Of a DNA stretch of 64,000 nt, positions 27,975 through 60,980 are shown piece by piece (the first letter of the stretch is position 1; the number at the start of each line of letters is the position of its first letter). The DNA lies in contig CAZROC010000005.1 of assembly GCA_964601625.1 (NCBI GenBank), positions 21,077-85,076 on the forward strand, read 5' to 3'. The stretch is from an uncultured Thermoplasmata archaeon. Its GTDB lineage: Archaea; Thermoplasmatota; Thermoplasmata; JAGHBH01. Under the pieces are notes generated by a model. It made no database searches and had not been told where the DNA came from. It saw nothing but the letters and a program-made list of their open reading frames with translations. A program made the translations under genes and the position numbers.

Positions 27975-29222
27975 TTGATGAATAACTGGGCTAAGATAAT
28001 AATCGGTGATAGCCGAAAAATGATAGAAGTTGGAGATAATAGTGTAGATCTGGTTGTTACGTCTCCCCCTTATTGGCATATTAAAGATTACGAAGTTGAA
28101 GGACAAATCGGATATGGGCAGAGTCTCCATGAATATTTGAAAGATTTATACAGAGTGTGGAAAGAATGCTACAGAATTCTTAAACCGGGACGGAGAATGG
28201 CTATAAATATAGGCGATCAATTCGCTCGTTCTGTAATTTATGGTAGATATAAAGTCATACCATTGCATGCTGAGTTCATAGCTCAGTGCGAGGATATAGG
28301 CTTTGATTATATGGGAGCAATAATCTGGCAGAAGAAAACCACAATGAATACGACCGGTGGAGCAAATGTGATGGGTTCTTATCCCTATCCTCCTAACGGA
28401 ATGATTGAGATTGACTATGAGTTTATACTTATTTTTAAAAAACCCGGAAAAAGTGGAAAGATTCCAAAGGAAATTAAGGAAATGTCTAAGCTAAGCAAGG
28501 AAGAGTGGAAAGAATACTTCTACGGGCACTGGTATTTTGGTGGTGCAAGGCAGATAGAACATGAGGCCATGTTTCCAGAAGAACTACCAAAAAGGTTGAT
28601 AAAGATGTATACGTTCGTAGGCGATACTGTTCTTGACCCTTTCCTTGGAAGCGGAACTACTGTAAAAGCAGCTTTGAATCTGAATAGAAATTCAATAGGT
28701 TATGAAATAAATGAAATGTTTTTAGATGTGATAAAAGAAAAACTGGGATTGAAACAAAGTTTACTTCAATTTAGTGGGGATATACAAATAATAAAACGAC
28801 GTACTGCGATAGAGGTTGATGAGATTAATTATGTCCCGAGAATCAAAGATGCCAGACCAAAAATAGATCCCAAAAAATTCAATTTTAAAAACGACAGACT
28901 TTATAAAGTTGTTGACATCATAGATGAACAAACTATTAAATTAAATACAGGTCTATTCGTTAGGTTCCTTGGTGTAAAAATAGATAAAAAGGAAGAAGCA
29001 TTGGAATATCTTCAAAATCGTGTTTTGAAAAAAGAGGTCTATCTTAAATTTGACAATGGCGTTGAGTTGAACGGAAATATTGTTAGTGCTTATGTTTATT
29101 TAAAAAATAGAATCTTCTTGAATGCGTATCTCATAAAATCTGGAATAGCGGTTCCGGACTTTTCAAAAGATTTTAAATTAAAGAACAAGTTCATCCAACT
29201 ATGGAGGAATAGTAATGGGTAA
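27975..29222 (+). CDS. beta-class N4-cytosine/N6-adenine DNA methyltransferase fused to C-terminal SNase-like (OB-fold nuclease-like) domain
   Basis: Motif IV SPPY comes before motif I DPFLGSGTT, which is the beta-group order. The C-terminal ~125 aa (VYLKFDNG...VSAYVYLKNRIFLNAYLIKSGIAVPDF) resembles the staphylococcal-nuclease fold. Sits in an AT-rich segment. Confidence 0.8.
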   Translation: MMNNWAKIIIGDSRKMIEVGDNSVDLVVTSPPYWHIKDYEVEGQIGYGQSLHEYLKDLYRVWKECYRILKPGRRMAINIGDQFARSVIYGRYKVIPLHAEFIAQCEDIGFDYMGAIIWQKKTTMNTTGGANVMGSYPYPPNGMIEIDYEFILIFKKPGKSGKIPKEIKEMSKLSKEEWKEYFYGHWYFGGARQIEHEAMFPEELPKRLIKMYTFVGDTVLDPFLGSGTTVKAALNLNRNSIGYEINEMFLDVIKEKLGLKQSLLQFSGDIQIIKRRTAIEVDEINYVPRIKDARPKIDPKKFNFKNDRLYKVVDIIDEQTIKLNTGLFVRFLGVKIDKKEEALEYLQNRVLKKEVYLKFDNGVELNGNIVSAYVYLKNRIFLNAYLIKSGIAVPDFSKDFKLKNKFIQLWRNSNG

Positions 29223-29306
29223 TGGCCTGGTTGTTATATATAGTATGAAGAGTTTTAATTCAACAAACGCTACCGGTTTACTCTTTTAAGGTAAGGAAGT
29301 GATAAA

Positions 29307-29981
29307 ATGGCAAAAGAATGGATATTGAACATGGCGACAAACAGATGGGGACTTAATAAGAAAAATAGTGTTGGGCCAGTATCTCAATGGATAAGGGAGT
29401 GTAGTCCAAGAACTATTAAAGATTGGGAACAATTTTATTATAAAAAGCTTGCTGATTTTCTCAAAGTAAAGGGTGTTTCTTTATCTCCTAAGGAGTATAT
29501 TGAAGATTTGGGAAGAAAATTGTATGTGAAAATTACAGAAGTTATACAGGCAGAAATAGAGGAAGTGACAGAAGAAGATTGTATTCGGTACATTTACAAC
29601 CTTGTAATTAACAGGACCTACGATGGCTATTTAACGGAGATAAAAACAATATATGGCAAGTTGCAAAGGGATTTGGGTGTTGATATAAAACCTGCACCGG
29701 ATGAGTGGGATAGACTTTACAATGTGGATTTTTATATACAAATTGGTAAAAATTATATTGGTTTGCAAATAAAACCGATAACTTATGAACAAACACCAGA
29801 AATTTACAGATGGAAAGAGTGGCTTGGTAAAACCCATAAGAAGTTTGAAGAAAATTTTGGTGGAAGAGTGTTTATTGTGTTTTCAATTAAAAAAGACAAC
29901 AAAAAGGAAATTTACAACCCGGAGATTATTGAAGAAATAAAAAAAGAAATTGAGAGGCTTAGAGAGAGGAGTTGGTCGTAA
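29307..29981 (+). CDS. putative type II restriction endonuclease (PD-(D/E)xK-like)
   Basis: D...YNVDFYIQIGKNYIGLQIKP is a PD-(D/E)xK-like motif. It sits immediately downstream of the MTase in the same AT-rich island. No family recognised. Confidence 0.45.
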   Translation: MAKEWILNMATNRWGLNKKNSVGPVSQWIRECSPRTIKDWEQFYYKKLADFLKVKGVSLSPKEYIEDLGRKLYVKITEVIQAEIEEVTEEDCIRYIYNLVINRTYDGYLTEIKTIYGKLQRDLGVDIKPAPDEWDRLYNVDFYIQIGKNYIGLQIKPITYEQTPEIYRWKEWLGKTHKKFEENFGGRVFIVFSIKKDNKKEIYNPEIIEEIKKEIERLRERSWS

Positions 29982-51254: not shown

Positions 51255-51298
51255 CCGCCAACGTGGTCCCTCATGGAGAAGTGGTTTAAAAGGTTTTG

Positions 51299-52315
51299 CT
51301 TTCTTAAAACGAGTGCAGTATCCCGAAATATTTTAACAGTTGTTCCTGTTAGGGGTATGCGGAAGTTGAATGATAGGAAGGTTCGTTGGATTATCAGGGA
51401 GATTGAGAAGGGTTCCAGTATGTCCAGGGTAGTTCGTATTCAGGGGGTTTCCCGTGTGCGTGTTTGGCAGTTGTGGCGGGAATACGTGGCCACTGGAGAG
51501 GTTCCACGGTTACGGAAGCCTGGTAGGAAGCCTGTCCCTATACCTCGGCATGAGAGAGAGCTGGTTTTTGAGATGTATGAGAGATACAAACTCGGCCCCC
51601 TGGCTTTGGAAAGAAAGATCAGGCGGGAGACCGGACAGCATATCCCACACAACAAGATATACCGGATCATGTTGGAAGGAGGGCTGATTGTGGAAAACCC
51701 AAGAAAGAAAAGACAACGCAGATATGTGAGATTTGAAAGAACACACTCGATGAGCATGTGGCAAGGCGACTGGAAACAAGTCCAAATAGACGGCGAAAAG
51801 AAATGTCTCATTGCCTTTATGGATGATGCCAGCAGACGAATAATGTGCTATGGAATCTACGATCATGCGACCACAGAAAACACCATACGGACACTAAGAG
51901 AGGGTTTCCGCAGACACGGGTGTCCTAGGGAGATTCTCATAGACCACGGACCACAATTCACAGCCAACAAAAAAAGAGACAAGAAAGGACGCGGTAAACA
52001 TCCTTTCCCAGAGTTCCTGAGACAACACGGCATAAAACATATTCTAGCAAGGGTCCAACACCCACAAACAAATGGCAAAATAGAACGCTTCTTCGGCACC
52101 CTCGAACAAAAACTCCCACTGTTCAACAACAACATACACGAACTCATACACCGGTACAACTATGACAAACCACACATGAGTTTGGATTTTGAGAACGCAG
52201 AAACACCAGAAGAAGCATTCTGGAGAAAACTCCCACCAGAAAAAATCCTTGAATACGCGGGGTGGTTACTTGAAGCGTAAAATCAATTCAGGATACTACA
52301 CTTTCTTAAAACGAG
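51299..52315 (+). mobile_element. IS481-like insertion sequence (987-bp core 51314-52300) with imperfect terminal inverted repeats and 15-bp direct target duplication
   Basis: Left end TGCAGTATCCCGAA (51314-51327) and right end TTCAGGATACTACA (52287-52300) are inverted. Identical CTTTCTTAAAACGAG copies flank both ends (51299-51313; 52301-52315). Confidence 0.65.
51357..52280 (+). CDS. transposase (HTH + DDE integrase-core/rve domain)
   Basis: DDE region (CLIAFMDDASRRIM...ILIDHGPQFTA...HPQTNGKIERFFGTLEQ) is typical of IS481/IS3-type rve. The Met at 51357 lies within the IS boundaries. Confidence 0.75.
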   Translation: MRKLNDRKVRWIIREIEKGSSMSRVVRIQGVSRVRVWQLWREYVATGEVPRLRKPGRKPVPIPRHERELVFEMYERYKLGPLALERKIRRETGQHIPHNKIYRIMLEGGLIVENPRKKRQRRYVRFERTHSMSMWQGDWKQVQIDGEKKCLIAFMDDASRRIMCYGIYDHATTENTIRTLREGFRRHGCPREILIDHGPQFTANKKRDKKGRGKHPFPEFLRQHGIKHILARVQHPQTNGKIERFFGTLEQKLPLFNNNIHELIHRYNYDKPHMSLDFENAETPEEAFWRKLPPEKILEYAGWLLEA

Positions 52316-52360
52316 CGATTGGTTTATATCCTCTGCTTTTTTTATGAGTGAGGAGAGAGT

Positions 52361-53398
52361 ATGAAAGTAATGATGTGTCCGCCAACTGGAACTCCATATT
52401 TAGATCTGTTGAAACAAGCGTTGGAGGAAGAAGGAATTAGGGTGGTCCCGGTTTCTTGGTTTGGCAAACAGACGGTGTATTCGCTATCTCAGCTTTTTAA
52501 AGGAAAAATAGGTGGGGCGAACATATTACATTTGCATTGGATGCCTTTTAACTGGTTTTACATGATGAGAATGGTGAGAAAGATATCTGGTTTTATTAAG
52601 GCAGAAATGGTATGGACCATTCACAACCTAATACCACATGAACCCAGATATGGAAGCACTGAAAAAGATATAGAGGCAATGAAATATATGGCTAATTGGG
52701 CGGTTGCGGGTATAGCACATTGCGAAAAAACGAAAGAAGAGTTTCATCAAATATATAGAAAAGATATGCCTATTTTTGTAATACCTCATGGTAATTTTAA
52801 TAAATATACCACTCCTTTTATCAAAGATCCAGAGGAATCACGAAAAAAATTGAATATACCGCCTGATAAAATAGTTCTTTTGCTGTTTCCTGCTAATCGT
52901 TGGAACAAGGGTATAAAAATGTTTATTGATGTAGTAAAGAAGCTTCCGGAAGAATATATGGGAATCCTTGCTGGAAAATGCAAAAATACAGAAATAAAAA
53001 ATTATATTAAACGAGAGACACAAAAAAATAGAGATAAATTTATAGTCAACCTTGGGTATCTAACTGATGAGGAAGCTGGATATTATTTTAGCGCCTCAGA
53101 CATATTTTTTATGCCATACACATACATAACTACTTCCGGTAGTGTGATGTATGCATTAGGGTTCAAAAAACCGGTCATTTCTACGCCAAAGGGTAACTTA
53201 TATCAACTTGTGAAAAACGGTATTAATGGCTTTTTATGTGAAAATGAAGAAGAAATGATAGAAAAAATACTTAGTATAGATCGGGAAACAGCTAGAAAAA
53301 TGGGAGAAGAAAGTTATAGAATAGCATCTCAACCTCAATTTAATTGGAGAGAAATTGCTAAAAAAACAATATCTGTTTATGAATATATAACAAAATAA
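52361..53398 (+). CDS. GT1/GT4-family glycosyltransferase
   Basis: C-terminal GT-B pattern (ALGFKKPVISTPKGNLYQLVKNGINGFL). AT-rich codon usage. Confidence 0.7.
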   Translation: MKVMMCPPTGTPYLDLLKQALEEEGIRVVPVSWFGKQTVYSLSQLFKGKIGGANILHLHWMPFNWFYMMRMVRKISGFIKAEMVWTIHNLIPHEPRYGSTEKDIEAMKYMANWAVAGIAHCEKTKEEFHQIYRKDMPIFVIPHGNFNKYTTPFIKDPEESRKKLNIPPDKIVLLLFPANRWNKGIKMFIDVVKKLPEEYMGILAGKCKNTEIKNYIKRETQKNRDKFIVNLGYLTDEEAGYYFSASDIFFMPYTYITTSGSVMYALGFKKPVISTPKGNLYQLVKNGINGFLCENEEEMIEKILSIDRETARKMGEESYRIASQPQFNWREIAKKTISVYEYITK

Positions 53399-53486
53399 AA
53401 GAACAAAATAATATAAAATAAAAAATAATATTAAGAGATATAAAAAACTGGCGGATGGATTTTTATACTGTAGGGACTATTTACCG

Positions 53487-54911
53487 TTGATGTTAGAAAA
53501 CGGAAAGCCAGACATCCTCTTTATAGTCTTGGACACTATGCGAAAAGATTATACTTTAATGCTTGAAAAAGAATTATCAAAATACAATTTTATATCTTAC
53601 GATAGGGCCATTTCTCCGGCTCCTTGGACCACACCATCTCACGCATCTATTTTTTCTGGGATGTATCCTGCTTTCCATGGGGTTCATGAGTCCAAAAGAA
53701 GAAAGCTGACAGATGTGTTTTTTAAAAAAGGGTTAAATAATCTTATTATTTCATTAAAAAATCATAAATATAAAACATGTCTGTTCAGTAGTAATAACTT
53801 TGTAACTCCAATCTATGGGTTTAAACCATTTGACCATTTTTTCTATGTTCACGCGTTCCCTCCCTCCTGGAACTTTTTATCAGATCAGGAGAGAAAAATA
53901 ATCTCTAAAATGAAATTTAATATCGACAATCCATTCCAAATGATAAATTTATTACATAATTCTGATGTTAAAATCACAGCTCTTAAATATATCTCCGAAA
54001 CGACGGCAAATATGTTAATTAGATTTAACGCAAAATTATTTTTTAATTGGCCAAAAAATAAAGGTAATCGCTTATTAACAAATAAAGTAAAAGATGTTCT
54101 TTTAAAAGAAAATAGTTCTTCATCTGATAGATATCCTCGTTTTATTTTTGTAAATTTTATGGAAGTTCATGAGCCATACACCATCAATGAACCAGTTAGT
54201 TTTTTGGATAATCTAAAAGAGAATGGGGCGTCTGAGAGGAATCTCTACGTCTGGAAAAAGAAATATAAGGAATTTTCTGAATATCTAAATAAAAATATAA
54301 TAACATTAATAAAAAACCTTGAAGATAAACTTGATAACATGCTAATCATAATTACCAGCGACCATGGACAGCTTTTAGGAGAGCATGGAAATAAAGTGGG
54401 TCATGGAACATATCTCTATGATGAACTTTTACGGGTTCCATTTTTAATTAGGTATCCGGATTCTTGGAAAAATAAAAATTCTCTTGAAAGATGGGAAACA
54501 ACAGACACCGAATCATGGCTTAGTTTGATAAAAGTAAAAGACATCATTGAAAAAGTTATCCTGTCCGATTCCTCCACTGTCTCAAAGAAGAAAATTCTAT
54601 CGGATATTGTATTCAGTGAAAGTTACGGGATACATCGTCGTGTAAGCTGGCTAAACGATTCTAAATCTCTGGCATCCAACGGAAAAACAGAAGAAATGGA
54701 GATAATCAAAAAAATCACACATTTAGAAAAGTACAGGATCGCAATATATTATAAAAATTCCAAAGTGATATTTAATGTTTCTGACTGGAAAATAGAAAGC
54801 ATTTCTTCTTTTAGTGATAAGATAATTGACGAAAAAGCTCTCATATATGAAGTGAAGAAACACGTCATGAATTTTATAAAAACTTCTACCGTACGCTCTT
54901 TAGTGCGTTAA
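53487..54911 (+). CDS. sulfatase-family (alkaline-phosphatase superfamily) protein
   Basis: N-terminus ILFIVLDTMRKDY...SPAPWTTPSHASIFSG resembles the sulfatase/phosphotransferase metal-site region. SDHG also present. Confidence 0.65.
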   Translation: MMLENGKPDILFIVLDTMRKDYTLMLEKELSKYNFISYDRAISPAPWTTPSHASIFSGMYPAFHGVHESKRRKLTDVFFKKGLNNLIISLKNHKYKTCLFSSNNFVTPIYGFKPFDHFFYVHAFPPSWNFLSDQERKIISKMKFNIDNPFQMINLLHNSDVKITALKYISETTANMLIRFNAKLFFNWPKNKGNRLLTNKVKDVLLKENSSSSDRYPRFIFVNFMEVHEPYTINEPVSFLDNLKENGASERNLYVWKKKYKEFSEYLNKNIITLIKNLEDKLDNMLIIITSDHGQLLGEHGNKVGHGTYLYDELLRVPFLIRYPDSWKNKNSLERWETTDTESWLSLIKVKDIIEKVILSDSSTVSKKKILSDIVFSESYGIHRRVSWLNDSKSLASNGKTEEMEIIKKITHLEKYRIAIYYKNSKVIFNVSDWKIESISSFSDKIIDEKALIYEVKKHVMNFIKTSTVRSLVR

Positions 54912-54956
54912 AAGTATGCCTTTTGTCCTTTTCGTACTTCCGGCGAGGATGTCAAG

Positions 54957-55806
54957 TTATTGCCTCCTTAGGTTGTATATTGTGATGAATGATAGGCACC
55001 ATGATAGTGCTGTTTCTGGTTTGGCGTTGTGTGGCCATCTTTTGTAGAATTGTTTGATTCTGTGTTTGAATATGTGGTACCATTGCTCTATTGGGTTTCT
55101 TGGTCCGAAGGTTTTGTGTTCCCATGTTAGTCCCATTCGTTGTAGGGCCCATGGGTTTGTTGGGAATTGCTTAGGGCAATTCCCCAAATCGTGCGGAATT
55201 TTAACAGAGTTAAAATTCCGTAGATACCATGGGCCCCCGTCTACGTAGATGTGTGGTTTGTTTGTACAGGTTTTTAGGATCTTTCTTAGAAAGATGTATG
55301 TGTCTAGTCCTGAGCGGGTTGTTGTTATTTGTATTGCTAGTATTTCCCATGTTTGTGTGTCTATGGCTGTCCACATGTAGTGCCATTTTCCCTGGATTTT
55401 TATCTTTGTCTCGTCTATTGCTATTGTTGGTCTATGTTTTTTCTCGGGTGTTGATAGTAGGTGTTTTGCTCTGTGGTACCATTGTCTGGCTGCCTCATAG
55501 CTGCCTCCCCCCGAACAGTCTCAGGACTTCCTCTGTTTTCCTATAGGATAGTCCCAGGTAGACTAATAGTATTTCCAGCGCTCTTATTTCCATGGGGGTT
55601 CTTTCTCTCACGAAAACCTTTTTAGCCCTTAACAATTCTACTATCCTCGTGAGCATATCCCATCCCTTCTGGCCCAACAAACCGGACCAAAACAGGGATA
55701 TGCTCACACCAAACTTAACACTTATCTTGACATCCTCTTCCGGCTTTATGGTATGCTTTTTATATAAGAGAGTATATAAGAGATTCTTGAGGGAATGCGA
55801 TGCCAA
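54957..55806 (-). pseudogene. IS6-family-like transposase, disrupted (N-terminal HTH ORF 55495-55806; DDE fragment 54957-55376)
   Basis: The N-terminal ORF (RERTPMEIRALEILLVYLGLSYRKTEEVL) and the C-terminal fragment (WTAIDTQTWEILAI...NPIEQWYHIFKHRIKQF) lie in different frames with a gap, so the element is degenerate. Confidence 0.5.
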
Positions 55807-57389
55807 AACTTATAATCCTAGGTCTTGACGGCGCTACATGGGATATATTAATGCCTCTATTAAACGAAGGCAGGCTTAAAAACTTAAAACGTATGGTTGA
55901 AAATGGTAGTTATGGAAATTTAATTTCTACAATCCCCCCAATAACTTCTCCCGCATGGGTATCCATGGCTACTGGGAAAAATCCGGGGCAGCTGGGAGTC
56001 TTTGATCTGTTGTATAGAGAAAACGAAGAAGAATTAACTTTGAAGCCTGTTTATTTCTATATGTTTAAAGGAAGTTTTTATTGGGATTTTTTGTCTAACA
56101 TGGGTTACAGAGTAGGACTCATTTTTTATCCTTTTCTGTACCCTCCATACAGAATCAATGGAATTATGGTTCCGGGATATGGCGCACCGTCTGAAGAAAA
56201 GATGTATCCATCCACCCTTTCGGATGAAATAAAGAAACGATTTGGAGAAATTAAATTTATGAAAGGTAGCCCAGCAGGTCTAAGCGATGAAAAGGCCTTT
56301 AAAGAGATTGTTTCAATAACGAAACAGCATTTTGAGATAGGAAAATACATCATTGAAAATAATGACTTGGATGTAATAACGTTTGTCATTTCTGGTACGG
56401 ATTGGATTCAGCATTTTTTCTGGAAATTTCTTGATCCAACACACGCGCTTTATGATGAAAAAATCGCTACTGTTTATAGAGAAAAAATATTTAAATTTTA
56501 TGAATATATAGATGAACAAATAGGAGATATTATTGGAATGTTTCCAGATAGCAACTTTATTATAGTTTCTGACCATGGTTTTGGTTCCTTAGATCAATAT
56601 TTCAATTTAGTTAAATGGTTGATTGATAATGGTTATATGGTATTTAAAAGAAAAATATCTGGATATTCAAAATTTAAAAATTCTATATTACAGTTCATGA
56701 GTAAGATAAACAGGCGAATTCCAATAGTAAAGATAATTCCCCGTTCTATATCAAAAAAAGCATGGGCAACCCTCAAAATTGATATCTCAGAAGTTCTTGA
56801 TTTAGAAAGGACAAAAGCATTCTGTTTAGGACATCATACGTCTATGGGAAGCATATATGTAAATAAGACGCTTATTTCAAATAAAAAAGATGTTGAAAAA
56901 ATAAAAAACGATATAAAAAACGGTTTAATAGAAACACTAAAACGTTTTGGCGTGGAGAATGTTAAATTTTATTCAAAAGAGGACATCTACCATGGGAAAA
57001 AAGCTCATCTGGCTCCGGATATGTGGTTCTCTGTGAACGATGGAAGATGTGCAATTATGCAACAGAGGATTGATCATCCAGTTCTGTTTGAAAATGTCCC
57101 ACTGGAAAAACGGATAAATGGAAGTCACCGCTTTGAGGGAATTTTTTTAGCATATGGACCTGATCTGGCGGCGAAAGGAAACATGGGAGATCTGTCCATA
57201 TATGATATTGCACCTACTGTTCTATCGTTTTTCGGTATACCCCCCCCATCTGATATGGACGGCAAAGTAATAGAGGAAATATTACCCCGAGGCAGGGTTA
57301 GAAATATAAAAAGTGTTTCAGCGAGAGACCTCGAAAAGATGCGCATAAAAGAAAAACTCCGCCAGATGAAACAGTTAAAGAACGTATAA
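55800..57389 (+). CDS. alkaline-phosphatase-superfamily protein (type I phosphodiesterase/nucleotide pyrophosphatase-like)
   Basis: ILGLDGATWDIL...SPAWVSMATGKNPGQLGVFD...SDHGFG are metal-site motifs of PF01663-like enzymes. Confidence 0.6.
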   Translation: MPKLIILGLDGATWDILMPLLNEGRLKNLKRMVENGSYGNLISTIPPITSPAWVSMATGKNPGQLGVFDLLYRENEEELTLKPVYFYMFKGSFYWDFLSNMGYRVGLIFYPFLYPPYRINGIMVPGYGAPSEEKMYPSTLSDEIKKRFGEIKFMKGSPAGLSDEKAFKEIVSITKQHFEIGKYIIENNDLDVITFVISGTDWIQHFFWKFLDPTHALYDEKIATVYREKIFKFYEYIDEQIGDIIGMFPDSNFIIVSDHGFGSLDQYFNLVKWLIDNGYMVFKRKISGYSKFKNSILQFMSKINRRIPIVKIIPRSISKKAWATLKIDISEVLDLERTKAFCLGHHTSMGSIYVNKTLISNKKDVEKIKNDIKNGLIETLKRFGVENVKFYSKEDIYHGKKAHLAPDMWFSVNDGRCAIMQQRIDHPVLFENVPLEKRINGSHRFEGIFLAYGPDLAAKGNMGDLSIYDIAPTVLSFFGIPPPSDMDGKVIEEILPRGRVRNIKSVSARDLEKMRIKEKLRQMKQLKNV

Positions 57390-57393
57390 CTTC

Positions 57394-58122
57394 TCAGTTC
57401 CCCGCCGCCTCCAGTATCACCCTTGCGAAATCTGTTATTTTTGGTGTGCCAAGGTCTGTGAAGTTGGTGCTCCAGAATCCGTAGTCGGAGTGGTCTCCAT
57501 ATGCTCCTACGGGTTTCATTCCGTGGTCGGACAGGACTATTTTTTTGCCCGGTGCTTTTGCTTCCGCTGTTTTCACTATGTCTTCTATGTCCCGGTATAT
57601 CATTTTCATGAGCAGTCTGTTTCCAAAGTTGAGGTGGCCTATCACGTCTGCCACGGAGAAATAGCCGAGGACGAGGTCGTGGTCTTCTCCAAGTGCTTTG
57701 AAAAACTCCTCTTTTATTTTTCTGTGGTGGGCGAAAGAGAGGTCGTTGTACTCTTTTTTTATCTCTTTTTTCTTTTCCTCGTCCTCCGCCGAGAAATAGG
57801 CTTTGAGAAGTTCTCTTTCTCTGCTGTGCTGGTTGAGGTCGTAGTTGTATCCGGGGAGATCTATTATTTTTGGGTTGTCAAAACGGGAAAAAAAGGTTTC
57901 TTCCAGGGGAATGCGGGTGTTCCACATCTCTCTGTCTCCTTTTGCGAGTATCTCTGCCTCTTTGTTCTGCCCGGTCATGAATGAGCTCCACAGCACCATC
58001 GTCCTTGGCTGGGAGAACTCTGTTATGTCTGTTTTTCCGTAAAACTTCTGTTTGATTCCTCTGAGGTTAAATTCCTCCACCAGGCTGTACTCCAGCGCGT
58101 CAACGGCTATTATGGTTATCAT
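57394..58122 (-). CDS. small alkaline-phosphatase-superfamily protein
   Basis: IIAVDALEY...VLWSSFMTGQ...LSDHGM is the same metal-site pattern in a shorter protein. Confidence 0.45.
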   Translation of the reverse strand: MITIIAVDALEYSLVEEFNLRGIKQKFYGKTDITEFSQPRTMVLWSSFMTGQNKEAEILAKGDREMWNTRIPLEETFFSRFDNPKIIDLPGYNYDLNQHSRERELLKAYFSAEDEEKKKEIKKEYNDLSFAHHRKIKEEFFKALGEDHDLVLGYFSVADVIGHLNFGNRLLMKMIYRDIEDIVKTAEAKAPGKKIVLSDHGMKPVGAYGDHSDYGFWSTNFTDLGTPKITDFARVILEAAGN

Positions 58123-59527: not shown

Positions 59528-60328
59528 TTACATGTATCCAAGCGCTCTCAGTTTTTGCATCATATACGCCCGCTCTTTGTCCTGTGCTCTCCCCGCTCTC
59601 TCGGCTGTTGTGGTGGTCTTCAACTCTTCTATTATCTTGTCTATAGTGTCTGCGTCCGATGGCACAGGGCTGCAGCACGGTTCGCATCCTATGCTCCGGT
59701 ATCTCTTCCCGTTTTTGGCAAAGTAGAGTTCCACGACTGGTATCCCCTCACGTTTTATGTAGTTCCATATGTCAAGCTCTGTCCAGTGGAGGAGCGGGTG
59801 TACCCTTATGTGCTGTTCTCCCTCCTGTTTTGTTTTGTACTGGTCCCAGAGCTCGGGCGGCTGGTCTTTGTAGTTCCACTGGAACGCCTGGTCTCTCGGA
59901 GAAAAGTATCTCTCTTTTGCTCGTATGCCATGCTCATCCCTGCGTATTCCCAGGAGGAGGGCTTTGAACCCGTATTTTTTAATAGTCATCTTCAGAGCCT
60001 CCGTTTTGAGAGCCGTACAGCAGGCTAGTTTTCCCTTATCCGGCCCCATACCAGCCGCTATGGCCTCTTCGTTTCGCCCCACGATGAGATTGAGGTTCCA
60101 CTCTTTCGCCCATTTGTCCCTGAATTCGTATATCTCTTTGAATTTATAGGACGTGTCTATGTGGACGACGGGAAAAGGAACTTTTCCGTAGAAGGCTTTC
60201 CTTATAAGCCAGACGAGTGTGGTTGAGTCCTTCCCTATACTCCAGAGGGCGGCTATGTCTTTGAACTGCCTGTACGCCTCTCTTATAATGTATATGCTCC
60301 TGCTTTCCAGCTCGTCAAGGTGGTCCAA
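59528..60328 (-). CDS. cysD: sulfate adenylyltransferase subunit 2 (CysD)
   Basis: PAPS-reductase-like fold with WSIGKDSTTLVWL (PP-loop) and CysD-type length. Confidence 0.85.
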   Translation of the reverse strand: MDHLDELESRSIYIIREAYRQFKDIAALWSIGKDSTTLVWLIRKAFYGKVPFPVVHIDTSYKFKEIYEFRDKWAKEWNLNLIVGRNEEAIAAGMGPDKGKLACCTALKTEALKMTIKKYGFKALLLGIRRDEHGIRAKERYFSPRDQAFQWNYKDQPPELWDQYKTKQEGEQHIRVHPLLHWTELDIWNYIKREGIPVVELYFAKNGKRYRSIGCEPCCSPVPSDADTIDKIIEELKTTTTAERAGRAQDKERAYMMQKLRALGYM

Positions 60329-60356: not shown

Positions 60357-60584
60357 TCAATCGAGGTATCCCAGGCTTCTCAGCCTCTCCTTTATCTTTT
60401 TTTCGTCTTCTTCAGACAGTTCAGGTTCTTCCTCGCCAGCGTCTTCCACAACTTCGTTCAAAACAAAGAGCACGTATTCTTCCACGCTGCCAAACCCGAC
60501 GTCTTCAACTCTTTTTTTGAGCTTGTTGTAGAGGTCCATTGGTATTTCCAGCTGATATGTGTCCTCCTTTTTTTCATCCACCAT
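60357..60584 (-). CDS. small ribbon-helix-helix-like protein with acidic tail
   Basis: 75 aa. YQLEIPMDLYNKLKK resembles an RHH beta-strand plus helix, followed by an E-rich C-terminus. Confidence 0.3.
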   Translation of the reverse strand: MVDEKKEDTYQLEIPMDLYNKLKKRVEDVGFGSVEEYVLFVLNEVVEDAGEEEPELSEEDEKKIKERLRSLGYLD

Positions 60585-60767
60585 GTTTTCACCACCCGGA
60601 TTTCTGTCAAATCCACATCACGTTAGAGTCATGTTGGCGATACACGGTTAGACCCATCTCCTATTTAATGTTAACCACTAAAGCCGAATGAAAACACAGA
60701 GAGGCGAGCGATGATGGTGGGAAAAAACTATTAAAGAAAAACGGTTTTAGTGTGCCGACTACCGGGT

Positions 60768-60790
60768 GGGCCCGTGGCTTAGCCTGGTGG
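60768..60790 (+). other. 23-nt fragment nearly identical to 5' end of tRNA-Ile (GGGCCCGTGGCTTAGCCTGGTGG)
   Basis: Compared by eye with the 5' end of the intact tRNA at 60903 (GGGCCCGTAGCTTAGCCTGGTTGG). It cannot fold into a full tRNA. Confidence 0.5.
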
Positions 60791-60875
60791 CCCAGAGGAA
60801 GCTGTGTTTCCTCTTTGCCTCGGCTATCGCCCGGCCCAGAGGAAGCTGTGTTTCCTCTTTGCCTCGGCTATCGCC
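60789..60875 (+). repeat. perfect tandem duplication, 2 x 43 bp (period 44) containing a 6-bp-stem hairpin GAGGAA-gctgtgt-TTCCTC
   Basis: ggcccagaggaagctgtgtttcctctttgcctcggctatcgcc occurs at 60789-60831 and again at 60833-60875. Confidence 0.85.
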
Positions 60876-60902
60876 TCGGAGCGCCTGCCTATCCCACGAA
60901 AA

Positions 60903-60980
60903 GGGCCCGTAGCTTAGCCTGGTTGGAGCGCCCGGCTGATAACCGGGAGGTCCGGAGTTCAAATCTCCGCGGGCCCACCA
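60903..60980 (+). tRNA. tRNA-Ile (anticodon GAT), CCA encoded
   Basis: Cloverleaf: acceptor GGGCCCG/CGGGCCC, anticodon stem CCCGG/CCGGG with loop CTGATAA, T-loop TTCAAAT. Confidence 0.85.

Follow-up and report, generated by a model that had tools for sequence, protein, structure and literature searches.

A rearranged partial copy of a tRNA-Ile(GAU) gene lies between a TATA-like box and the intact gene in an uncultured Thermoplasmata archaeon

The window, the whole stretch of 64,000 nucleotides that was analysed, contains an intact tRNA-Ile(GAU) gene with an encoded CCA. ARAGORN identifies it as tRNA-Ile(GAT), and its score with the tRNA model of Rfam is 67.9 bits against a gathering score of 29. 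With a cloverleaf and an anticodon in place, the gene has the features of a functional tRNA. Upstream of it lies a partial copy of the same gene, here called psi, which is interrupted by a tandem repeat and preceded by a TATA-like box. The elements of the locus are the following.

60728–60737, + strand: archaeal TATA-like box (ctATTAAAga), the only one in the region
60765–60777, + strand: leader and psi acceptor strand GGTGGGCCCGTGG, complementary at 12 of 13 positions to the tRNA 3' end (60967–60979)
60768–60790, + strand: head of psi, corresponding to tRNA-Ile nt 1–23 by sequence comparison
60789–60875, + strand: D-loop insert of psi, two head-to-tail 44-nt units (TRF)
60789–60832 and 60833–60875/6, + strand: the two repeat units
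60794–60814 and 60838–60858, + strand: 7-bp hairpin AGAGGAA-GCTGTGT-TTCCTCT, one per unit
60878–60902, + strand: remainder of psi GGAGCGCCTGCCTATCCCACGAAAA (second block and tail), which matches tRNA nt ~20–33, possibly up to ~46, in degraded form
60903–60980, + strand: intact tRNA-Ile(GAU) with encoded CCA (ARAGORN; Rfam)

The ORF of 75 amino acids that precedes these elements (60357–60584, − strand) has no Pfam hit. Its C-terminus (...KERLRSLGYLD) resembles that of the adjoining CysD (59528–60328, − strand; ...QKLRALGYM), and the two have a C-terminal RL(R)xLGY motif in common.

The head of psi, GGGCCCGTGGCTTAGCCTGGTGG, matches the 5' end of the gene at 21 of 23 positions in an ungapped alignment and starts 135 nt upstream of the gene start, in agreement with the original prediction made from the sequence. 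It differs from the gene by A9G and by one missing T of the D-loop. Just two occurrences of the 21-mer are present in the window, with 0.01 expected by chance. The length of 23 nt first given for the copy describes the head only, since tRNA sequence resumes past the insert: the segment 60878–60890 (GGAGCGCCTGCCT) matches tRNA nt ~20–33 at 11 of 13 positions, and a weak alignment continues through the tail to 60902, where it reaches tRNA nt ~46. The tail abuts +1 of the intact gene. Its global alignment differs from shuffled sequences with p<0.001, for a hand-picked segment whose tested string had one extra 3' G, the G1 of the gene; an unguided local alignment of the second block and tail by itself is not significant. 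Judged from these alignments, psi appears to comprise the first third to half of the tRNA gene, with the D-loop split by the insert.

Psi was also considered as a second or intron-bearing tRNA, and this candidate was rejected. ARAGORN detects no second tRNA in 60768–60902 with introns allowed, at low thresholds and with two, one or zero repeat units, and an E-value search of psi and the spacer against Rfam returned neither a second tRNA nor a match to any covariance-model family. A further 19 nt overlapping the start of psi (60754–60772) match tRNA nt 33–51 at 14 of 19 positions, which is estimated to be the chance level; the match has the same register as the psi tail before the real gene.

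The D-loop insert is a nearly pure duplication. TRF reports a period of 44, 2.0 copies, 100% matches and a score of 174 over 87 periodic nucleotides (60789–60875), and 43 of 43 positions match at the 44-nt offset, the last base of the second unit being the one that differs (C at 60832 versus T at 60876). The predicted perfect twofold duplication of a hairpin-bearing unit is thereby confirmed, the stem being the 7-bp AGAGGAA/TTCCTCT. Adjacent head-to-tail copies of high identity are typical of slippage-type tandem duplications, which the 44-nt repeat resembles in full, except that it sits inside the larger psi structure. The duplication had been taken to be recent, and it is plausibly young. 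Logan contigs of two other samples (SRR35108318, SRR7051160) are identical to the window up to 60818 and end there; unique 31-mers extend this far and no further before the repeated unit, so that a duplicated unit would force a k=31 graph to branch at this point. It is therefore unlikely that the repeat is an artefact of one assembly, a concern raised with the prediction: both contigs break where a true repeat predicts it. No copy of the spacer or the insert was found in the remainder of the window, in the fetched loci, in IMG/VR or in JGI metagenome contigs, and the spacer was accordingly rejected as a dispersed or mobile repeat. Before the 44-nt duplication, the spacing from head to gene was 91 nt.

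The position of the promoter was compared with that in related loci. The common D-arm and anticodon arm were used to fetch 75 loci, nearly all from Thermoplasmatota, with 69 distinct upstream regions (L-numbers such as L072, L089 and L090 are labels of fetched loci or contigs). A YTTWWRW box starts 30–36 nt before +1 of the tRNA in 62 of these 69 relatives. In the window, the TATA-like box (ATTAAAG, ~60730) is located about 38–40 nt upstream of the psi head, and the GC-rich 45 nt before 60903 hold no TATA-like motif. The A+T content between −45 and −20 is 80% before 60768 versus 36% before 60903. On the simplest reading, psi occupies the ancestral start of the gene. Because the box is present only before psi, and that of the relatives is at the tRNA, tRNA-Ile would probably be made from a long precursor with a structured leader of ~140 nt. 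The longest T-run in the leader is 3, which makes read-through plausible. The reading we favour for the 213-bp feature is a single transcription unit, composed of the ancestral promoter, a dead and rearranged psi equivalent to about the first third to half of tRNA-Ile, and the functional gene. A single-copy and presumably essential tRNA thus appears to depend on a promoter located ~170 bp upstream of +1.

The partial copy had been interpreted as a scar of integrase-mediated insertion or excision, and the tRNA as a possible attachment site of an integrative element. The geometry fits this idea, as the layout is that of pTN3-like 5'-half integration. Among archaeal integrases, only the pTN3-like family is known to target the 5' half of tRNA genes; the dead 5' fragment stays behind the original promoter with the intact gene downstream, and the reconstituted tRNA is expressed from a promoter of the element (PMC8371274; PMC5495485). 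The pTN3 target is a tRNA-Leu gene with 41 bp shared and a minimal site of nt 2–44 (PMC5495485; PMC8371274). As in the att sites of pTN3 and TKV4 in Thermococcales, the window has a direct repeat of the tRNA 5' part (the 21/23 head and the degraded block 60878–60890), the dead fragment keeps the promoter, and the intact tRNA is cut off from the original promoter, with a TATA-like box before psi only. The pTN3 and TKV4 repeats, however, flank a plasmid or provirus of many kilobases with a split integrase gene, whereas those of the window are 112 bp apart with no gene between them, an insert breaks the repeat in the D-loop and the integrase search described below was negative.

The spacer between psi and the gene contains no ORF, and no element with a tyrosine recombinase gene separates the repeats; as the copies are only 112 bp apart, nothing is integrated between them. 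Integrases were sought by a Pfam scan of the ORFs near both AT-rich blocks and both tRNAs, together with precomputed Pfam lists. The search yielded only DDE transposases (rve and an IS240-like fragment) and an MjaI-type restriction-modification pair. No tyrosine integrase or recombinase is present in the scanned part of the window, 7.7 to 64 kb, and no tyrosine recombinase domain in the ~6.6 kb of contig past its right end. A third tRNA-like or att-like copy was found in the window neither within 3 mismatches nor by blastn-short. The spacer and the tRNA D-arm have no match in IMG/VR viral contigs, and the spacer has none in JGI metagenome contigs. Of the scar interpretation, which is supported only in part, the rearrangement at the tRNA gene stands and a presently integrated element does not, as none lies between the copies. 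The attachment site finds no counterpart in an integrase or a third tRNA-like copy. The prediction had named the outcome that would speak against it, no integrase and no second att-like copy, and this is what the window presents within the span of the integrase scan given above.

The adjacent AT-rich, IS-rich region, proposed as an island linked to the tRNA, was likewise examined. The IS-bearing block at 52.0–57.4 kb has a GC content of 35.5% and ends 3.4 kb before the tRNA, separated from it by cysN, cysD and the 75-aa gene, which are of ordinary composition (49.5% GC). Its transposases are of the DDE type only. There is no distal partial copy of the tRNA, and hence no deviant block enclosed between the tRNA and such a copy. 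Three features of this low-GC island were located.

51273–52280: rve-type IS
54957–55376: IS240-like fragment
57394–58122: phosphodiesterase-like ORF

The content of the low-GC island (51273–58122) includes a glycosyltransferase, a sulfatase and a phosphodiesterase, with no tRNA fragment at its bounds. An independent ENA assembly (L008) breaks at the rve-type IS. A separate low-GC block (33–36%) at 27975–29981 consists of an N6/N4 DNA methylase and an MjaI-type restriction endonuclease.

Since the defining element and integrase were sought and not found, the feature is classified as a tRNA gene fragment or partial duplication, outside the integrase-att family. For annotation, the case shows that an integrated element or island cannot be deduced from a partial tRNA copy beside a tRNA gene alone. 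In Caldiarchaeum subterraneum, a 5' tRNA-Thr fragment is found 1.8 kb upstream of tRNA-Thr-II with a recombinase element between them (PMC3293823), and this 1.8-kb recombinase-encoding element occurs six times in the genome (Sugahara et al. 2012, PMC3293823). The Caldiarchaeum case is alike in having a 5' fragment upstream of the intact gene, tied there to insertion or intron gain (PMC3293823); in contrast, the window has a unique, non-coding spacer of 112 bp with no bulge-helix-bulge (BHB) motif at its ends. The tRNA gene fragments of Thermococcaceae, which van der Gulik et al. (2023, PMC9897764) describe as by-products of partial duplication, are also partial non-functional copies beside real genes, but they are attributed to integrated transferred elements or CRISPR spacers (PMC9897764), whereas the window has no element and no CRISPR array. 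All of these closest cases (pTN3/TKV4, Caldiarchaeum and Thermococcaceae) have an element between the copies, which the window has not. The absence of an element, the 112-bp spacer, the insert inside the fragment and the location of the fragment between promoter and gene set the window apart from them.

By NadX, the nearest relative found is L089 (52% identity), in which the order tRNA-Ile–nadX is retained and a TATA-like box is present ~55 nt upstream of the tRNA, with no psi in the 124 nt of upstream sequence available. Of the 66 relatives whose upstream sequence is 600 nt or longer, just one, L072 ('archaeon isolate Dive96_bin1.310'), has a psi at tRNA-Ile. No more two-copy layouts were found in metagenomes, and a NadX-based search of GTDB genomes found none. 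The L072 psi (psiIle) has a head of nt 1–24, a 50-nt insert at the same D-loop point as in the window and a block that matches tRNA nt ~20–35 at 14 of 15 positions. Next come a TATA box and, at a distance of 138 nt from the head, the intact gene. The likeness of this spacing to the 135 nt of the window is a coincidence, given the 91 nt that preceded the 44-nt duplication. Deep homology between the two inserts is not detectable (p=0.72).

Scanning of every tRNA in the fetched loci led to the discovery of a second case, psiLeu, in L072. Both psi elements are kept in L090 (GCA_024277315.1), a related MAG whose IPK is 81% identical to that of L072; both genomes belong to the Thermoplasmatota. The additional features of these two loci are listed here.

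L072, 3384..3180, − strand: tRNA-Leu(CAA) with upstream psiLeu
L090, 3971–4175: tRNA-Leu(CAA) with upstream psiLeu
L090, 5107–5197: additional (third) layer before psiIle; this 86-nt block is missing in L072 and has 9-nt direct repeats at its bounds
L072, 3503..3415, − strand: 89-nt block directly after tRNA-Pro(GGG), absent from L090

The plan of psiLeu is that found at tRNA-Ile. In L072, the head extends to nt 24 (23 of 23 matches over nt 2–24) and is followed by a D-loop insert of ~49 nt with two hairpins; after the insert come a block of nt 21–37, a TATA box and the intact tRNA-Leu(CAA). The last tRNA position covered is nt 37 for psiLeu and nt 35 for psiIle, in L072 as in L090. The third layer of L090 joins GGGCCCGTA (nt 1–9) to the T-arm/acceptor-like TCTCAAACTCCGGGCTC and is followed by a TATA box; it reads as an internally deleted copy of a full-length tRNA. 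The 89-nt block of L072 ends in a copy of the tRNA-Pro 3' end (CCGGCCGGGCCCA). A hairpin of this block, GACTTCT/AGAAGTC, resembles the psiLeu-insert hairpin GACTTCC/GGAAGTC. Over all intergenic DNA compared, L072 and L090 are ~85–90% identical, so that conservation there says little about selection. Their differences are mainly indels of 86–89-nt blocks with tRNA-derived direct repeats of 9–13 nt at the bounds, and one insert hairpin is swapped wholesale between them. A 13-nt stretch of the psiIle insert, CTCGAAAAGCTCC, recurs in reverse-complement orientation within the IPK gene of both genomes (at L090 5815 and at the equivalent site of L072), a few hundred nt downstream of psiIle; this could be a templated insertion or chance (~0.02 expected).

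The end points of the psi elements bear on two alternative readings. [quoted passage not shown] Psi would be attL, the original 5' half behind its promoter, the intact gene would be attR with a 5' half brought by the element, and the element would since have been deleted to tens of nucleotides, or would be a miniature non-autonomous one moved in trans. The main argument is that the break points in the D-loop and the anticodon loop are common to Leu and Ile. The pTN3-like att covers tRNA nt 2–44 and leaves the rebuilt tRNA severed from its original promoter (PMC8371274; PMC5495485), to which the psi of the window (~nt 1–33/46, holding the promoter) and those of L072 and L090 (psiLeu to nt 37, psiIle to nt 35, with a TATA box directly after psiLeu) may be compared. 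A classical 3'-end duplicate follows tRNA-Pro in L072, the intact Leu and Ile genes are immediately preceded by segments with a weak mutual resemblance (p=0.03), the layout occurs in lineages that share a habitat, with an L072-clade member in the window's own samples, and Caldiarchaeum offers a precedent of a 5' tRNA-Thr fragment with a recombinase element (PMC3293823). Against this, no integrase or element gene is present at any of the loci or in the scanned 7.7–64 kb of the window, and the putative elements measure 13–115 nt, which would require near-total deletion each time with both att copies spared. Furthermore, psi directly abuts +1 in the window, the D-loop insert breaks the supposed att core, T-arm and acceptor sequence as in the L090 layer is unexpected from a 5'-half att, the spacer and the tRNA D-arm are absent from IMG/VR, and 5'-half targeting is known only from Thermococcales and Methanococcales.

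According to the second reading, psi would be the 5' half of a split or intron-bearing tRNA, with the D-loop insert as an intron and the 3' half located elsewhere or shared with the intact gene. The 5'-half genes of the split tRNAs of Nanoarchaeum equitans and Caldivirga maquilingensis are likewise promoter-bearing pieces ending in the anticodon loop, and archaeal split tRNAs with breakpoints in the D-arm are known from Nanoarchaeum and Caldivirga. The psi elements stop in or at the anticodon loop, psiLeu exactly at nt 37, the classical site of splits and introns. The psiIle of L072 has its own TATA box, and L090 has one directly upstream of psiIle and a second before the extra layer. Split tRNA halves, however, come with a partner half, with leader and trailer sequences that complement each other and with a junction BHB; none of these was found in the window, and an intact gene for the same tRNA coexists with psi. 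None of the five D-loop inserts forms a canonical in-register bulge-helix-bulge under the strict hBHBh' geometry, and they were rejected as BHB introns. The 135-nt stretch of the window, tried as a D-loop intron with a copy of exon 1, was dismissed too, because its BHB-like geometry is at chance level (15 of 1280 site pairs pass, one of them in phase versus ~0.4 by chance). In addition, the psi anticodon stems cannot pair, and ARAGORN reports no second tRNA with introns and low thresholds. This reading is therefore very improbable.

We further analysed the predicted structure of the leader. In the predicted minimum free energy fold of the whole precursor, it is psi, not the true 5' strand, that pairs with the tRNA 3' end, and the GGTGGGCCCGTGG strand, complementary to that end as listed above, could compete with the true 5' strand for it. 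The leader folds far more stably than shuffled sequences, with z = −3.4 for one repeat unit and −4.9 for two. The tRNA-Ile would then need to be excised from a long precursor whose leader holds a competitor of the acceptor stem. Such folding might suggest that psi is functional, either as a structured leader with control over how the tRNA folds or is processed by RNase P, whether through competition for the 3' acceptor strand or through sequestration in its own hairpin, or as a separately expressed 5'-half-like small RNA. The L090 psiIle also folds well (z = −3.9), and pairing of the head with the block or tail, across intervening hairpins, is common to all versions. The psiLeu heads track the lineage-specific changes of their own tRNA (AAGTCAGG in L072 versus AAGCCAGG in L090), as psi heads of these two loci do in general, and psiLeu retains a hairpin whose position is constant and whose sequence differs. 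By contrast, L072, with a G4 mismatch, does not preserve the complementarity to the 3' end, the overall intergenic identity of L072 and L090 makes conservation uninformative, and hairpin B of psiIle decays without covariation. The head–block pairing arises in part from the built-in D-arm/anticodon-arm complementarity of this tRNA, no Rfam family is matched, and 65 of the 66 relatives, as well as the closest one, manage without psi. A function for psi is accordingly quite improbable, and both this reading and that of a split or intron-bearing tRNA are less likely than a duplication or an integration relic.

The reading that we tentatively prefer, at a little under even chances, is a local duplication in which only the promoter-proximal part of the gene was copied, with later decay of the upstream copy and slippage. 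A head-to-tail duplication of tRNA nt ~1–46, by replication slippage or unequal recombination, would have set a second copy directly before +1. Only the downstream copy would be contiguous with the 3' part of the gene, and would for this reason have stayed under selection. The upstream copy would then have decayed and gained a hairpin-forming D-loop insert of ~43 nt, which slippage would have doubled into the 44-nt tandem repeat. The functional gene would now be without its own promoter. Its transcription, driven by the TATA box at ~60730, would probably give a precursor of ~220 nt, from which RNase P would cut between 60902 and 60903, shedding a GC-rich leader of ~140 nt.

Several observations argue for this local duplication. 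The TATA-like box stands before psi and not before the gene, where that of the relatives is found at −36 to −30, and the psi tail abuts +1, as a tandem duplication of nt 1–~46 would produce. The perfect 44-nt tandem duplication indicates that slippage occurs at this locus, and all the events are small and similar in size. The closest relative has no psi in its 124 nt, and L072 alone has one among the 66 relatives. The nested partial copies, the L090 layer with 3' tRNA sequence and the direct-repeat indels are what a decaying tandem array would leave, and no integrase or mobile-element gene is found at any of the three loci. The insert hairpins are perfect and swapped wholesale without covariation, one of them visibly decaying. 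Duplicated tRNA-Ile genes in several relatives point the same way: some Methanomassiliicoccales have two full tRNA-Ile(GAU) genes, each with its own promoter, 1.2 kb apart in L037 and on the same contig in L017/L056 and L039/L044.

Other observations count against the duplication. The same architecture occurs at two tRNA species in two lineages, which random decay does not predict, and the break points in the D-loop and anticodon loop that are common to Leu and Ile are left unexplained. The promoter segments upstream of psi and of the intact genes in L072 and L090 have no significant homology, which argues against a duplication that included the promoter, as homology would then be predicted. 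Finally, the psi head is better conserved (21/23) than the tail (~70%), a difference that requires gene conversion, chance or selection.

The feature of the window by itself is a curiosity; the same plan at two tRNA genes elsewhere is unexplained. Its recurrence at Ile and Leu (a head to ~nt 24, a D-loop insert, a block to the anticodon loop and a TATA box) hints at a site-specific process, which, acting on tRNA genes, would bear on the fragmentation of archaeal tRNA genes, and it prompts one to ask whether integrases that target 5' halves also occur beyond Thermococcales and Methanococcales. It is improbable, though worth stating, that the psi modules are the footprint or working parts of an undescribed process that targets tRNA 5' halves in some Thermoplasmatota. 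Miniature insertions (~50–120 nt, hairpin-rich and promoter-bearing) might enter the D-loop or anticodon loop and rebuild the gene, or expressed 5'-half-like leader RNAs might tune tRNA maturation. If true, either version would link the fragmentation of tRNA genes, split and intron-bearing, to a process observable today.

A member of the L072 clade co-occurs in the three datasets of the window. A placement of the window organism in the L072/L090 clade on the basis of a co-occurring IPK contig was rejected, since the tetranucleotide profile of this contig, which correlates with that of the window at r=0.50 versus r=0.89 with that of L090, marks it as coming from a different organism. In one of the datasets, the Logan contig L005 (SRR7051160) begins inside the tRNA of the window, at the variable loop (60948). 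This start implies a second sequence in SRR7051160 with the same 30-mer GGTCCGGAGTTCAAATCTCCGCGGGCCCAC, which may come from a related strain or from another tRNA with an identical T-arm and acceptor. Among the fetched loci, archaeal tRNA-Ile contigs of the Methanomethylophilaceae type (L021, L045, L046, L054, L075, L079, L083 and L087) occur in bins to which GTDB gives the names of gut bacteria (Ruminococcus, Bacteroidaceae, Lachnospiraceae, Bifidobacteriaceae, Dialister and Prevotella), and are likely bin contamination.
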